This document shows, in pieces, positions 10,238 to 52,897 of a stretch of 55,020 bases of DNA (its first letter is position 1; every line of letters begins with the position of its first letter). The position numbers and the translations under genes were made by a program. The DNA lies in assembly GCA_027082835.1 (NCBI GenBank), contig JALWTP010000025.1:1-55020 (forward strand), given 5' to 3'. The stretch is from Candidatus Kaiserbacteria bacterium (lineage in GTDB: Bacteria; Patescibacteriota; Minisyncoccia; Phycocordibacterales; UBA2100). Below the pieces are notes generated by a model, which ran no database searches, was not told the origin of the DNA, and was given only the letters and a program-made list of their open reading frames with translations.

Positions 10238-10919
10238 ATGGTCAAGAGTTCAGAAAAAATACAAGCAAGAATACTTAGAAAACGAGGAATTAGTATAACT
10301 GAAATAGCAAAACAGCTTAATGTTTCGAAAGGGTCCGTAAGTATTTGGTGTAGTGATATTATTCTTTCGGAAAAGCAAAAACGAGTTCTTTATGAAAACA
10401 AAATAAAAGGCGGGTTGATTGGCAGAATGAAAGGTGCAGAAAAAAAACAAACAGAAGCGTCTTGATCAACTGTCAAAATATGAAAAAGAGGGAGAATTAG
10501 AAATTAACGCAATTACAAAAAGAGATCTTCTTATGTTGGGAATTGGTTTATATTGGGGCGAAGGAACAAAAAGTAATTATGGAGGTCCCGCTGTCATTAC
10601 TAATTCTGATCCAAATGTTATTTTACTTGCAATGCGGTGGTTTCAGGAAAACTTTGGTGTTGCGGTAAAAGATTTTAGACCGTATATTTATATTTCTGAG
10701 ATACATAAGGAAAGGGAAGAAGATATAATGAATTTTTGGGTAGGCACTCTAAAAATACCAAAGAAACAATTTTTAAGAATTATTTTTCTAAAAAATCGTC
10801 CTAAGAAAAAATATGAGAATTATGATTCTTATTATGGTATATTATCGTTGCGTGTGCGCCGTAGTACGAACTTGAAATATAAAATATTGGGTTTAATTAA
10901 AGCGTGTGCACCAAAGTAA
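10238..10919 (+). pseudogene. HTH plus single-motif LAGLIDADG-like endonuclease, split into two ORFs (10238-10465, 10434-10919) at an A8 run
   Basis: ORF1 carries an HTH-like ILRKRGISITEIAKQLNVSKGSVSIW. ORF2 carries LGIGLYWGEGTK (LAGLIDADG-like, acidic E). The frames overlap at gcagaaaaaaaac. Confidence 0.55.
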
Positions 10920-10923
10920 ATAT

Positions 10924-10997
10924 GTCGGCGTAGCTCAGTTGGTTAGAGCGAGCGTTTCATACGCGCTAGGTCGGAGGTTCAAATCCTCCCGTCGACA
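10924..10997 (+). tRNA. tRNA with CAU anticodon (elongator Met or Ile2; cannot be decided by eye)
   Basis: GTCGGCG/CGTCGAC acceptor, GCTC-AGTTGGTTA-GAGC D arm, AGCGT-TTCATAC-GCGCT anticodon arm, GGAGG-TTCAAAT-CCTCC T arm. Confidence 0.85.
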
Positions 10998-11226
10998 CAC
11001 ATAACACATAGAACAAAACACGAGCAGTGTTTTGTAATGATGTGGTATTGGCGACGAGAGGATTTGAAAAGAGGTGTCGGTATACAAGACGAACGAAACG
11101 AAGTGGAGTGAGGGCTTGTCGACACCGGCGGGGTCGCGTCGCTTGATATTTTAGAGCGCAAAGCGCGAATAAAATATCTAGCAAAGGTGACCAAATCCTC
11201 CCGTCGACACACATAACACACAGAAC
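10980..11226 (+). repeat. 35-nt direct repeat (10980-11014 and 11192-11226) duplicating the tRNA T-loop to 3' end plus trailer; offset 212 bp
   Basis: caaatcctcccgtcgacacacataacaca[t/c]agaac occurs twice. Confidence 0.9.
11058..11200 (+). ncRNA. Candidate structured element (three-way junction), tRNA-Met-linked copy
   Basis: Anti-T box GAGGATTTGAA 11058-11068; hairpin GGTGTCG/CGACACC 11073-11126; long hairpin 11132-11192; closing partner CAAATCCTC 11192-11200. Homologous to 12218-12340. Confidence 0.4.
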
Positions 11227-11245
11227 CACACACTATTTCTTGAAA

Positions 11246-11274
11246 TAAAAAACGCCCATATGGGCTGTTTTTTA
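11246..11274 (+). terminator. Rho-independent terminator
   Basis: A-run, GCCCATATGGGC palindrome, T-run. Confidence 0.65.
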
Positions 11275-11395
11275 TACTGCGCGAACGAAGGGACTTGAAT
11301 CTTTAATATCTTCGTATAGAAGTTAAGTATATGCTACACATAAAGTTGAGCATATATTGGTTGTAGATTTTGCCTGTCATTGTTATTATATACAT

Positions 11396-12079
11396 ATGAA
11401 AAGTAAAAAGGTGGTGAATAAAGATTTTTTTAAAAACTGGTCAAGTGAAATGGCGTATGTGTTAGGATTTTTTGCTGCCGATGGATATATGTGGGAAAGT
11501 GCACGAGGTGCATATTTTTTTGGTTTTCAGATTAAAGATAAGAATTTGCTGTATAAAATAAGAAAAATATTAAATTCAAACCATAAAATTGCTCAGAGAA
11601 TCAGTAAAAATAGTAATTGGCATGATAGTTATAGATTACAGATTGGTAGCAAGGAAATGTTCAATGATCTCTTAATGCTTGGTATGACTCCTGCAAAGAG
11701 TAAGACACTCACATTTCCTAAAATTCCAAAAGAATATTTGAAAGATTTTATACGAGGTTATTTTGATGGTGATGGAAATGTGTATTTTAAAAAACATTTT
11801 GCAAAAGATAGGGGAAAAGATAGATGGGTCTTTCAAACGCGATTTACATCTGCAAGCAGAAGGTTTCTAAAAGAAATACAAGAAAGATTAAAAAAGAAAT
11901 ATATACAGGGCGGATACATTTACCAAAAACAACGAGGATATGAACTGGTATTCAGTCATCGCGATAGTATTGCTTTATATGAATTAATGTATAATAATAC
12001 TGCAACAAGTTTGTATTTACGGCGCAAAAAAGATATTTTTGAAAAAGCGTTGCGAACTTTGTACCATAAGGGGACGTAG
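11396..12079 (+). CDS. Double-motif LAGLIDADG homing endonuclease
   Basis: Two LAGLIDADG motifs, VLGFFAADGYM and IRGYFDGDGNVY. The stop codon TAG (12077-12079) lies inside tRNA-Asp. Confidence 0.8.
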   Translation: MKSKKVVNKDFFKNWSSEMAYVLGFFAADGYMWESARGAYFFGFQIKDKNLLYKIRKILNSNHKIAQRISKNSNWHDSYRLQIGSKEMFNDLLMLGMTPAKSKTLTFPKIPKEYLKDFIRGYFDGDGNVYFKKHFAKDRGKDRWVFQTRFTSASRRFLKEIQERLKKKYIQGGYIYQKQRGYELVFSHRDSIALYELMYNNTATSLYLRRKKDIFEKALRTLYHKGT

Positions 12080-12142
12080 CTCAGCCGGTAGAGCACTGCC
12101 TTGTCACGGCAGGGGTCGCGGGTTCAAGTCCCGTCGTTCCCG
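12070..12142 (+). tRNA. tRNA-Asp(GUC)
   Basis: GGGGACG/CGTTCCC acceptor, GCTC-AGCCGGTA-GAGC, CTGCC-TTGTCAC-GGCAG, GCGGG-TTCAAGT-CCCGT. Confidence 0.9.
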
Positions 12143-12148
12143 CATTAC

Positions 12149-12176
12149 AAAAAAACAGCCCGTATGGGCGTTTTTT
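12149..12176 (+). terminator. Rho-independent terminator (repeated at 12361-12388)
   Basis: aaaaaaacaGCCCgtatGGGCgtttttt. Confidence 0.65.
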
Positions 12177-12217
12177 GTTGCGGAAACGAAACAACAGTGC
12201 CTGCGCACTGTTGTGGC

Positions 12218-12340
12218 GGGACTTGAAAAGAGCGAGCATATCGGAGGAGGTACGACGACGATGTGAGCGGCGGGGTCGCGTAGCTTAGTATTTTAGAGTG
12301 CGGAGCACGAATAAAATAGTTAGCGAAGGTGACCAAGTCC
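12218..12340 (+). ncRNA. Candidate structured element (three-way junction), tRNA-Asp-linked copy
   Basis: Anti-T box GGGACTTGAA 12218-12227; hairpin CATATCG/CGATGTG 12237-12265; long hairpin 12274-12334; closing partner CAAGTCC 12334-12340. Confidence 0.4.
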
Positions 12341-12483
12341 TTACATTGCTCTCGCATTACAAAAAAACAGCCCGTATGGGCGTTTTTTGTTGCGGAAACG
12401 AAACTACAGTGCCTGCGCACTGTTGTGGCGGGACTTGAAAAGAGCGAACGATACACTTTTCTGCAAGAATTCAAGTGGCACAG

Positions 12484-12515
12484 AACAAATGTATCGATTA
12501 ATCGATACATTTGTT
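12484..12515. terminator. Perfect 15-bp palindrome; likely bidirectional terminator
   Basis: AACAAATGTATCGAT-TA-ATCGATACATTTGTT between the tRNA region (+) and the convergent flavoprotein gene (-). Confidence 0.6.
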
Positions 12516-12528
12516 TTATATCAATCAT

Positions 12529-40416: not shown

Positions 40417-40576
40417 GGTTGCTGTTTAGATGAAAATCAGTATCCTTATACACACAATAAAATAAAGAACGCCAGAAAGCTGAGTTGGCAAGAAGAATAT
40501 TGCCAACCGCCTTGAGGTTGCTGTTTAGATGAAAATCAGTATCCTTATACACACAATAAAATAAAGAACGCCAGAA
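40417..40576 (+). repeat. 99-bp-period duplication of the tRNA-Thr leader plus a degenerate 5' tRNA half
   Basis: The 61-nt ggttgctgtttagatg...aacgccagaa is identical at 40417-40477 and 40516-40576. The first copy continues as a degenerate D arm plus AACCGCCTTGA. Confidence 0.9.
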
Positions 40577-40642
40577 TAGCTCAGTTGGTAGAGCAACCGC
40601 CTTGTAAGCGGTAGGTCAGCGGTTCAAGTCCGCTTTCTGGCT
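40570..40642 (+). tRNA. tRNA-Thr(UGU)
   Basis: GCCAGAA/TTCTGGC acceptor, GCTC-AGTTGGTA-GAGC, ACCGC-CTTGTAA-GCGGT, AGCGG-TTCAAGT-CCGCT. Confidence 0.9.
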
Positions 40643-40923
40643 CAAAATACAAATTCTTCTTGTAAACAAGAAAGAGCAACCGCCTTGTCTATAGTCAAGT
40701 TGGGTAGGTCAGCGGTTCAAGTCCGCTTTCTGGCTCAAAATACAAATTCTTCTTGTAAACAAGAAAGAGCAACCGCCTTGTCTATAGTCAAGTTGGGTAG
40801 GTCAGCGGTTCAAGTCCGCTTTCTGGCTCAAAATACAAATTCCTCTTGTAAACAAGAAAGAGCAACCGCCTTGCCTATAGTCAAGTTGGGTAGGGCAGAG
40901 GTTCAAGTCCGCTTTCTGGCTCA
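40643..40923 (+). repeat. Three tandem 93-bp units, each a spacer hairpin plus a partial pseudo-copy of tRNA-Thr(UGU) (D-stem 3' strand to 3' end, anticodon 3' stem replaced)
   Basis: GAGCAACCGCC starts at 40674, 40767 and 40860. The units differ by only a few substitutions. Confidence 0.9.
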
Positions 40924-40934
40924 AGATAAGAAGT

Positions 40935-51820: not shown

Positions 51821-52897
51821 ATGAAAAACAATTTAAACAAAGTATTTATAACCATTTTTGTCGTATCAGCTACTCTTTTTGGAGGAGTTGCGACTTCGTA
51901 TGCGCAAATGGTTGACTACGGTGGCTTGAATGACTATTCAAACTACGGCGGACTAAACGACTACCAAAACTACGGCGGTCTTAATGACTATACAAACTAC
52001 GGCGGGTTAAACGACTATGTAGACTACGGAGGTCTTAATGACTATGTCGACTATGGTGGTATAAATGATTACACAAAATCTGGTGGTTATTACAGTGGTA
52101 TAAATGATTACACAACATCAGATTCATATACAACAACAAACGATACTGTCACATATGACTACATTGATACGACTTATGACTACATTGACACTACACCAAC
52201 ATGGAATTGGAATATATATTTCAAGAAGCGATATGCATATTCACTCCCTCCTACGGTGAAAATAGTACAAAAAAATCAAAATTCAGATGTACTTGCTGAC
52301 TATTACAATACAACACACAGCAAATACAAGAATACAGGACCTGTAGTGCCGACATTGACAATTGTGCAGAATCAGCAAAGTGGTAATGTGCTTAATGACT
52401 ACAACAACGCAACACGCAACGCATCGGTGCAATCGCCCGTTCCTACATTTGAAATAGTGCAAAAGCCACAAACTTCAAGTGTTATTGCTGACTATATAAA
52501 AGAGACGCAGTATGACAAACCTCAAACTGCAACAGTGGTGCATCCGCGCGTATACCAATATGCAACTAATCCCACACCTGTGGTATATCAAACCAACTAC
52601 ACCCCCGCATACGACTATGTTCGCATCAACCAAGTACCCTACACCGGAACAAATGATGTAGCGTATGTACTCACCCTCATTGCAGTAGCACTTGCCTCAG
52701 TAGGAGCAGTAGTCTACTTTAGAGGAAACATCGCCTACGCATTTGCAGGACTCACTGGAAACACTCCCGTAACACTCAGTGAAGAGGTAAAGGAAGATAC
52801 TGAAAATGAGAATGAAAACGAAACAGAAGGTGACGACAACAACACACCAACACTCTCACTGATAAACGACGAAAACGGTCCACGACTTTCATTTTAA
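51821..52897 (+). CDS. Repeat-rich surface protein (YGGLNDY repeats) with a VPYTG-TM C-terminal module and acidic tail
   Basis: Signal peptide; six Y-G-G-[LI]-N-D-Y octad repeats plus one degenerate SGINDY copy; three IVQ-x-Q-x-S-x-V-[LI]-x-DY repeats; QVPYTG followed by TM VAYVLTLIAVALASVGAVVYF. Confidence 0.6.
   Translation: MKNNLNKVFITIFVVSATLFGGVATSYAQMVDYGGLNDYSNYGGLNDYQNYGGLNDYTNYGGLNDYVDYGGLNDYVDYGGINDYTKSGGYYSGINDYTTSDSYTTTNDTVTYDYIDTTYDYIDTTPTWNWNIYFKKRYAYSLPPTVKIVQKNQNSDVLADYYNTTHSKYKNTGPVVPTLTIVQNQQSGNVLNDYNNATRNASVQSPVPTFEIVQKPQTSSVIADYIKETQYDKPQTATVVHPRVYQYATNPTPVVYQTNYTPAYDYVRINQVPYTGTNDVAYVLTLIAVALASVGAVVYFRGNIAYAFAGLTGNTPVTLSEEVKEDTENENENETEGDDNNTPTLSLINDENGPRLSF

Follow-up and report, generated by a model that had tools for sequence, protein, structure and literature searches.

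Introduction

Mobile DNA classically inserts at the 3' ends of tRNA and tmRNA genes. Integrases that target the T-loop leave the tRNA gene intact and add a second copy of its 3' part that joins in the T-loop, and to our knowledge every mobile system described at these sites brings its own recombinase. Here we describe two loci with this geometry in a 55,020-nucleotide stretch of DNA from a Candidatus Kaiserbacteria bacterium (assembly GCA_027082835.1, contig JALWTP010000025.1, positions 1 to 55,020, forward strand), referred to below as ‘the window’. Behind its tRNA-Met gene and its tRNA-Asp gene lies one copy each of a conserved, folded, non-coding module of ~120–140 nt, which resides in the 3' flank of tRNA and tmRNA genes. 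This module, or ‘core’, is embedded in copies of the gene that it follows. We use ‘a1’ for the 3' part of the host gene itself, from the T-loop onward; ‘a'’ for an inverted copy of that part, reaching up to U54; and ‘a2’ for a direct copy that begins at C56. The general layout is then: host gene (with a1), terminator hairpin (‘t’), a', core, a2 and terminator. The whole is an element of ~200 bp without a protein gene, from a phylum about whose mobile elements and non-coding RNAs little is known. It is apparently undescribed; full-text literature searches found no description of it.

We rate small non-coding elements associated with tRNA genes as its nearest kind, and several described systems share parts of its design. 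The elements of T-loop tyrosine integrases, and integrase-less remnants of the cis-mobilizable element (CIME) type, resemble it in having an intact gene and a second 3' part that starts in the T-loop, in occupying tRNA and tmRNA sites, and in accreting in tandem. They differ in that here no integrase is found near the copies examined, the unit is only ~200 bp, an inverted copy is present, the repeats continue into the trailer and terminator, and a conserved core has flanks matched to many tRNAs. Repetitive extragenic palindromes (REP) and bacterial interspersed mosaic elements (BIME), Correia elements, Rickettsia palindromic elements (RPE) and the palindrome-associated transposable elements (PATEs) of IS200/IS605 are, like it, small, non-coding, hairpin-rich and sporadic; they occur beside terminators, sometimes in arrays, and they need a trans-acting enzyme, as we propose for the element here. 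Unlike these palindromic repeats and miniature inverted-repeat transposable elements (MITEs), however, the element has inverted arms that are copies of the host gene. Its arms (a' and a2) are variable, 5–28 nt, and it is without its own terminal inverted repeat or a constant target-site duplication. In the window it occurs only at tRNA 3' ends, and its copy number is apparently low. An IS200/IS605 PATE was rejected on two further grounds: the two hairpins of the core, P1 and P2, are dissimilar, and the left flank does not correspond to the 5' part of a split target.

Among non-coding RNAs, those co-transcribed with tRNAs—plant tRNA–snoRNAs, mitochondrial t-elements, MALAT1-associated small cytoplasmic RNA (mascRNA) and small RNAs of the 3' external transcribed spacer (3'ETS sRNAs)—and the YrlA Y RNAs have in common with the element their tRNA orientation, a position directly downstream, and a helix like that of the acceptor and T-stems. 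In the element, by contrast, a three-way junction stands in place of the T-loop, and the arms copy the neighboring tRNA exactly, in sense and antisense; the Rfam models of YrlA and of tRNA do not match it. A folded scaffold interleaved with segments that match the site, here on both strands, also recalls the bridge RNA of IS110, the tigRNA of tandem interspaced guide RNA (TIGR) systems and the omega RNA of TnpB and IscB, but no Nop-domain, IS110, TnpB or IscB gene lies nearby, and the segments are 10–28 nt long and mutually complementary. TIGR arrays have two 8–12-nt spacers, box C (CCA) and box D (UG) motifs, short regular repeats and an adjoining gene for Tas, a Nop-domain protein (PMC12045711). 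Membership of the TIGR or bridge-RNA systems was rejected: Pfam scans revealed no Nop or IS110 genes, the unit is ~200 nt, and box C/D motifs and dual spacers are absent. Bacterial class C group II introns, finally, insert directly after intrinsic terminator hairpins; compared with these the element is far too small and lacks intron domains. In Rfam 15, matches in the window are to tRNAs only, and nothing falls on the element at E-values up to 5, there or in its relatives; known ribozymes, introns, Y RNA and riboswitches were rejected on the same permissive search.

Direct repeats at tRNA-Met and tRNA-Asp

The features of the two loci are collected in Table 1. Both repeats had been noticed in an earlier reading of the same stretch (the original prediction), and both are real. 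At tRNA-Met the repeat begins at C56 within the T-loop (CAAATCC, position 10980); its first 35 nt contain the one mismatch that had been reported, and according to the repeat finder it extends to 42 nt at 93% identity. The a2 and a1 parts are identical at 26 of 26 positions. The repeated block at tRNA-Asp amounts to 98 nt at 98% identity, and in both cases the two copies are spaced 212 bp apart, start to start. Repeats of this size and identity (42–98 nt, 93–98%) within 212 bp are far beyond chance, and short diagnostic patterns from the inserts match these two loci only (0–0.05 matches expected by chance). Ahead of the second Asp block lies the degenerate T-loop and acceptor copy that the original prediction described, and that we call a2. 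It is 3 nt longer than the original and differs by ~6 substitutions and a 3-nt indel. A young, 98%-identical block of terminator and a' following an old, decayed a2 indicates that this block arose by a later, secondary duplication.

The equal 212-bp offset at the two loci was a central claim of the original prediction. As a start-to-start measurement it is correct, but it needs qualification. Measured between T-loops, the copies lie 212 bp apart at Met and 209 bp apart at Asp (12125 to 12334), the latter because the degenerate copy is 3 nt longer; at Asp, the 212-bp offset holds for the trailer and terminator block only. Homologous units in relatives measure 205, 204, 198 and 194 bp from T-loop to T-loop. 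The agreement at 212 is therefore coincidental within a unit of ~195–212 bp, and a fixed length constraint of 212 bp is ruled out.

Table 1. Coordinates of features at and between the tRNA-Met and tRNA-Asp loci of the window
Feature	Position	Strand	Evidence or remark
tRNA-Met (CAT), intact host gene	10924–10998	+	ARAGORN; Rfam tRNA 68.8 bits
a1, Met direct repeat copy 1: T-loop C56 to 3' end, plus 24 nt of trailer	10980–11021	+	repeat finder
Trailer hairpin t, AAAACAC-GAGCA-GTGTTTT	11013–11035	+	apex of long imperfect palindrome a1–t–a'
Met a': inverted copy of acceptor 3' strand, T-stem 3' strand and T-loop through U54	11049–11068	−	
Met junction AAGAG and hairpin P1, stem GGTGTCG (11073–11079)/CGACACC (11120–11126)	11069–11126	+	
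Met conserved module: CGGCGGGGTCGCG, hairpin P2 (GA/GAA internal loop, apical GCGC-AAA-GCGC), GGTGAC	11126–11191	+	
a2, Met direct repeat copy 2: tRNA-Met 3' part from C56, plus trailer	11192–11233	+	repeat finder
Old bidirectional terminator (11244–11273) and tRNA-Asp 3' remnant truncated in the T-loop (11278–11299)	11244–11299	−	
LAGLIDADG homing-endonuclease gene	11396–12079	+	PF14528, E = 1.4e-15; neighbor, not part of the element
tRNA-Asp (GTC), intact host gene	12070–12143	+	ARAGORN; Rfam tRNA
Asp direct repeat copy 1: last acceptor bases, terminator t, parts of a', a' hairpin, AAGAGCGA	12138–12235	+	repeat finder
Copy 1, t	12150–12179		
Copy 1, a' acceptor part	12179–12189		
Copy 1, hairpin within a'	12191–12214		
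Copy 1, a' T part	12215–12227		
Asp junction AAGAG and hairpin P1 (CATATCG/CGATGTG type)	12228–12267	+	
Asp conserved module: CGGCGGGGTCGCG, P2 (GA/GAA loop, GTGC-GGA-GCAC apex), GGTGAC	12268–12333	+	covariance model 134.6 bits
Asp a2: degenerate direct copy of tRNA-Asp 3' part from C56, CAAGTCCTTACATTGCTCTCGCA	12334–12356	+	
Asp direct repeat copy 2	12350–12447	+	repeat finder
Copy 2, terminator	12362–12391		
Copy 2, a' acceptor part	12391–12401		
Copy 2, hairpin within a'	12403–12426		
Copy 2, a' T part	12427–12439		
Copy 2, AAGAGCGA	12440–12447		

A shared core between inverted and direct copies

The original prediction regarded the inserts as structured and non-coding, and this is what they are; it missed that they share a homologous core, and that each includes an inverted copy of its own tRNA. 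Positions 11126–11199 and 12268–12341 are 85% identical over 74 nt. The order of parts within the module is the same at both loci: CGGCGGGGTCGCG, a long hairpin (~53 nt), GGTGAC and, directly after it, the remainder of the T-loop (CAARTCC). In front of each core lies a', the inverted copy of the 3' part of the local tRNA; its end lies in the T-loop, and AAGAG comes next. At Met, a' is complementary to the 3' part of tRNA-Met at 18 of 20 positions (90% and 89% by repeat finder); at Asp, the complementarity to tRNA-Asp is 25 of 26. The Asp a' is split in two by an inserted hairpin, and the split block, hairpin included, recurs in the second copy of the Asp repeat. Folding of both loci is far stronger than that of shuffled sequence (z-scores −5.4 and −9.5). 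In the 55-kb window, a covariance model trained on seven copies of the element finds exactly two, both at tRNA genes.

CGGCGGGGTCGCG resembles the variable loop plus T-stem of tRNA-Asp, and the motif CTTGTCA resembles its anticodon loop. CTTGTCA occurs only in the core subtype common to the Met copy of the window and two related loci (L043 and L067; we cite such loci by these handles where they need to be told apart), and the left parts of other subfamilies are different (CGGGGTAGCG and CCGCGTCCAG). We leave a degenerate tRNA-Asp as a possible origin of the core, and do not claim it.

Fold and covariation

The consensus core is modeled as a three-way junction. Its closing helix, P0, is formed by the T part of a' pairing with the start of a2 (e.g. 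GGAYTTG/CAARTCC). Hairpin P1 comes after a conserved (G)GAG. The base of hairpin P2 is formed by GGTCGC and GYGACC; P2 also contains a conserved internal loop (5'-GA/5'-GAA) and a conserved U-U mismatch, and its apical stem is usually capped by a C(GNA)G triloop. A canonical kink-turn in the GA/GAA loop is ruled out, the 3-nt bulge being missing.

In an alignment of 15 sequences (A3), which was fitted to the model and must be read with that caveat, 92.3% of cells pair, against 30–38% with slid partners, and 22 of the 30 pairs have changed on both sides. The covariation score is 0.378 against 0.05–0.08, and none of 500 shuffles reaches the observed values. Compensation in the P1 stem is evident from the raw sequences, independently of the fitted alignment: the stems differ yet stay complementary (GGTGTCG/CGACACC in the Met copy of the window, GCTTCTG/CAGAAGC in L043 and GCTTCCG/CGGAAGC in L067). 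Conserved secondary structure with compensatory changes, the mark by which structured RNAs are recognized, is thus present in the core. The strand of tRNA sense folds more stably than its complement in all 11 copies, and G-U pairs outnumber A-C pairs, 26 to 15. From this asymmetry and the excess of G-U pairs it follows that what is conserved is a folded single strand of tRNA polarity, either RNA or single-stranded DNA.

Occurrence in other Patescibacteria

The covariance model finds copies in nine genomic contexts. The module was found behind tRNA-Ala (L046, L047, L049 and L052) and tRNA-Val (L050) by a pattern scan of metagenomes; behind tRNA-Asp (L043, L044, L045 and L067) in syntenic loci reached through homologues of the neighboring LAGLIDADG gene; and, as more divergent copies picked up by the covariance model, behind tRNA-Ile (L005) and the tmRNA 3' end (L004 and L005). 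A search for inverted and direct copies of T-arms added loci with the same layout and other cores: tRNA-His and tRNA-Arg (L050), tRNA-Ser (L017) and tRNA-Met (L043). None was seen by that search in the non-Patescibacteria loci included in it. The layout is thus known behind at least nine gene identities (tRNA-Ala, Val, Ile, His, Arg, Ser, Met, Asp and tmRNA). It can be locally dense: three of the four tRNAs in 9.4 kb of L050 carry it. A 637-kb contig contains a single exact match to the pattern of the module, and a scan of viral contigs for its left end gave only chance matches in GC-rich coding sequence.

The arms copy the gene beside which they lie: TTCAAATCC at Met; TTCAAGTCC at Asp, Ala and Val; TTCGAGTCC at Ile; and TTCGATTCC at His, Arg and tmRNA. 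At eight of 12 loci, a' is complementary to the host 3' part over 18–28 nt, trailer included; at seven of 12, a2 is identical to the host 3' part over 15–26 nt; and in L067, a2 matches that genome's own variant of tRNA-Asp at 19 of 19 positions. Since the arms contain trailer sequence, they were copied from DNA and not from mature tRNA. A hairpin is often inserted in a'. That of the Asp copy of the window, AGTGCCTGCGCACT, recurs in L052 and L005, and the hairpin is homologous across genomes; its point of insertion is always tRNA position 64/65, 1 nt from the junction of acceptor and T-stem. The core is 80–86% conserved between genomes whose neighboring genes share 65–73% DNA identity.

Several observations point to gain, loss and reshuffling of the element. 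In L039/L040, L041 and L061–L066, the orthologous tRNA-Met loci and the loci at which a homing-endonuclease gene (HEG) precedes tRNA-Asp have plain terminators and no element. At the Asp and Met sites that the window shares with L043, the core subtypes are different. L047, L052 and L005 contain tandem arrays, the units of which are progressively decayed, and in L049 the a2 of one unit contains, in its T-loop part, a second unit with CCAAGTC on either side. Two metagenome contigs, L046 and L047, share 99% identity over at least 1.86 kb beginning with the first base of tRNA-Ala, and only 74–79% upstream of it (UvrC and Ddl); this suggests a recent exchange with its boundary at the tRNA-Ala gene.

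Nature of the element

The reading that we favor, at a confidence somewhat below even, is that of a non-autonomous, selfish, duplicative element that targets the 3' ends of tRNA and tmRNA genes, is recognized as a folded strand, and has its arms templated from the adjacent gene. Such an element would land in or beside the T-loop region and leave an intact gene; what is recognized would be a folded single strand with the polarity of the tRNA; and its arms would be made from, and kept matched to, the adjacent gene by templated repair or gene conversion within the palindromes a1–t–a' and a'–core–a2. The mobilizing enzyme would be encoded elsewhere and act in trans. At Asp, the second duplication of terminator and a', 95–98 nt, would have been added recently onto the older, decayed a2. 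We prefer this reading because of the sporadic distribution, the turnover of subtypes, the decaying arrays, and the strong terminator between tRNA and a'. Several points tell against it. The step by which the target end is copied in both inverted and direct orientation is our surmise, and is not derived from known transposition chemistry; no transposition intermediate, near-identical pair of empty and filled strains, or mobilizing enzyme was identified. Copy number looks low (two in 55 kb, one exact match in 637 kb), the copies in the window cluster at tRNA genes with none elsewhere, and a fixed terminal repeat or target-site duplication of the classical MITE type is absent. The conserved junction nucleotides, the GA/GAA loop, the U-U mismatch and the terminator after each a2 are more like those of a functional RNA, and the alignment behind the covariation scores was fitted to the model.

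A functional RNA is accordingly the rival to be weighed first. The element might be a structured RNA made from the tRNA or tmRNA trailer, by read-through or from its own promoter, and serve either as a tRNA-like handle for processing, on which RNase P, RNase Z or the CCA-adding enzyme would act, or as a cis switch in which a' pairs with the tRNA 3' half or with the decoy a2 and so controls that tRNA's maturation. A precedent exists in dicistronic tRNA–snoRNA genes, which are processed by RNase Z (cited in PMC12045711). The strong covariation, accompanied by conserved GGAG before P1, CGGGG(T)NGCG, and GAC before C56, speaks for an RNA, as do the conservation of the GA/GAA loop and of the U-U mismatch in P2, and the better folding of the tRNA-sense strand in every one of the 11 copies. 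Each a2 is followed by its own terminator-like hairpin; in L047 the second terminator differs by compensatory changes (CCGCC/GGCGG versus CCACC/GGTGG), and the hairpin in a' sits at 64/65, where the body of the tRNA leaves the acceptor–T helix. On the other hand, a good bidirectional terminator separates the tRNA from a', which may rarely be co-transcribed, and no promoter-like site precedes a'. Were both on one transcript, a duplex of 20–28 bp between a' and the tRNA 3' half would harm folding of the tRNA. In several copies, moreover, a2 is just 5–10 nt long, and presence at orthologous loci is sporadic, core subtypes turn over and array units decay. We regard a trailer RNA as a serious possibility, if on balance an unlikely one; it is compatible with a selfish element, and the two are not mutually exclusive. 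Less likely still, though worth stating, is a programmable scaffold in which three target-copied segments (the acceptor part of a', the T part of a', and a2) guide a trans-acting enzyme to the T-loop of the tRNA, or form a cis switch that gates maturation. The guide version, if true, would amount to nucleic-acid-guided integration or homing at tRNA genes in bacteria of the candidate phyla radiation (CPR); in the switch version, a' would toggle between the tRNA's own 3' half and the decoy a2, gating maturation of that tRNA or tmRNA.

The original prediction took the duplicated tRNA ends for attL and attR of a tyrosine integrase. The geometry behind that view stands: the tRNA genes are intact, a second 3' part follows ~200 bp on, and a2 starts in the T-loop, at C56 (11192 and 12334). 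A deletion remnant, or a cis-mobilizable mini-element with attP arms only, would also suit the tRNA and tmRNA targets, the tandem accretion, and the L046/L047 mosaic with its boundary exactly at tRNA-Ala; moreover, a unit of ~200 bp is similar in length to a complete attP, such as that of phage lambda. An origin as an integrase scar is nevertheless very improbable. Neither the window, as the original prediction had correctly stated, nor the related loci examined have an integrase, and at orthologous sites in relatives we found the small element or an empty site, never a full-length element. Identity extends well past an att core, reaching 24–95 nt beyond the tRNA into the trailer and terminator. 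Every copy includes a', which an att model does not explain; the 3' ends are locus-specific, re-matched to host genes of at least nine identities, where an att remnant should carry one fixed end; and compensatory evolution of hairpins is not expected of arm-type protein-binding sites. Somewhat less remote, but still improbable, is that the loci are passive by-products of tRNA-gene rearrangement, with no function or mobility, produced by breaks in the T-loop (e.g. by the abundant LAGLIDADG endonucleases), unequal crossing-over, or template switching at terminator hairpins. In favor of this, a T-loop-truncated tRNA-Asp remnant on the (−) strand lies beside the cassette of HEG and tRNA-Asp, the window contains a 93-nt tandem array of tRNA-Thr sequence (40610–40928), the young Asp repeat of 98 nt resembles a simple secondary duplication, and the arms of a1–t–a', which include trailer, were copied from DNA. 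It leaves the compensatory changes unexplained, however, as well as a core that is better conserved than the neighboring genes and that is found behind many tRNAs, also at loci with no HEG nearby. As a complete explanation it is largely refuted, although it may account for the secondary Asp duplication. That the repeats are an artifact of assembly is the least credible proposal of all. The contig is metagenome-assembled, and a Logan contig of the same sequence breaks off at 12486, a short way past the repeats; but a second assembly, an ENA scaffold possibly of the same sample origin, agrees base for base over 5.5 kb spanning the region, the repeat copies differ by substitutions and a 3-nt indel, and the same architecture is seen in many independent assemblies of other genomes.

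Two further mechanisms were considered and rejected. A primer-binding site of the retroelement type is at odds with the course of a', which runs into the genomic trailer and not into CCA; in L005 the matches, trailer included, are 25 of 26 and 28 of 28. A serine recombinase cutting at the central TT would leave a shared dinucleotide, which, as judged by eye, is missing: the left junction retains AA (the complement of U54-U55), and the right has AC where TT would be expected.

If the element is mobile, it points to a new T-loop-directed mechanism that would be able to regenerate the host gene and re-template the arms; if it is an RNA, it would represent a new class of tRNA-linked RNA specific to Patescibacteria. 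Either way, it accounts for spurious open reading frame (ORF) calls in these regions and provides a model with which to search, and the question becomes testable with metatranscriptomes and complete CPR genomes.

Genomic neighborhood and minor observations

The window is a stretch of Patescibacteria housekeeping genes, with pilus genes, ligase, GatCAB, PrfB, FtsEX, CTP synthase, RNase J, PheST and GyrB. The closest relatives in GTDB are metagenome-assembled genomes of the Paceibacteria type, at 55–63% protein identity. Pfam scans of 30 further ORFs gave housekeeping genes only, and no integrase, transposase or reverse transcriptase occurs in the window; near the related copies examined, Pfam scans and ORF lists likewise contained no integrase, recombinase, transposase or reverse transcriptase.

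The LAGLIDADG gene between the two loci belongs to a family with 2743 homologues, mostly in Patescibacteria. Its stop codon falls inside the 5' end of tRNA-Asp. The arrangement of LAGLIDADG gene and tRNA-Asp is kept in several Paceibacteria genomes, at L039 (4001–4678), L041 (4001–4639), L043 (2548–3243) and L067 (906–1589), and the free-standing LAGLIDADG frames of relatives end inside, or within 1–2 bases of, the first bases of tRNA-Asp. A tie between this gene and the element is ruled out: elements occur without a HEG (L047, L050 and L005), and HEGs occur without an element (L039, L041 and L061). The tRNA-Asp remnant at 11278–11299 matches the (−)-strand tRNA-Asp of L009 at 21 of 22 positions and the tRNA-Asp of the window itself at 19 of 22; the gene order in L009 is tRNA-Met (+), terminator, tRNA-Asp (−). 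Being nearer to the L009 gene, it is read as the remnant of an older, oppositely oriented tRNA-Asp, and is a separate relic, not part of the element. This implies that the LAGLIDADG gene and the (+) tRNA-Asp may have replaced the old tRNA-Asp as a cassette.

In three relatives the anticodon loop of tRNA-Asp is interrupted by an insertion of ~240–270 nt (L041 4654–4893, L061 ~2215–2420 and L067 1591–1858). These insertions resemble group I introns; that of L067 matches Rfam Intron_gpI with 34.5 bits (E = 4e-7), below the gathering score. A group I intron at gathering level lies beside a tRNA-Met fragment in L041 (2693–2904, − strand).

Upstream of tRNA-Met in the window, two overlapping ORFs at 10238–10465 (with an HTH domain) and 10434–10919 (the 161-aa remainder) resemble a frameshifted version of a single ORF of 225–227 aa in L041 (3035–3718) and L043 (729–1406). 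Across the Asp element runs an ORF of 127 aa (12145–12528, − strand), which is annotated in ENA on the identical scaffold (L001, 10650–11033). It has no Pfam match, overlaps structured repeats and is very likely spurious; L043 has an analogous call of 125 aa. Between the Asp element and the end of a convergent flavoprotein gene is a perfect 32-nt palindrome (12484–12515; AACAAATGTATCGATT/AATCGATACATTTGTT), which is probably the terminator of that gene; it is here that the Logan contig mentioned above ends. Elsewhere in the window, an ORF at 51821–52894, which has no Pfam match, contains a tandem repeat of 27 or 54 nt at 51915–52068 (5.7 or 2.4 copies, 75–85% matches).

A last observation concerns the tRNA-Thr(TGT) gene at 40570–40643, which is followed by the 93-nt tandem array mentioned above (3.4 copies, 97% identity). 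Its repeat unit consists of 29 nt of trailer and a partial tRNA-Thr that runs from the 3' strand of the D-stem to the 3' end. In these units CTATAGTCAAGTTGG takes the place of the anticodon arm's 3' side, and the junction lies in the anticodon loop, which sets the array apart, as a partial tRNA duplication, from the T-loop type.

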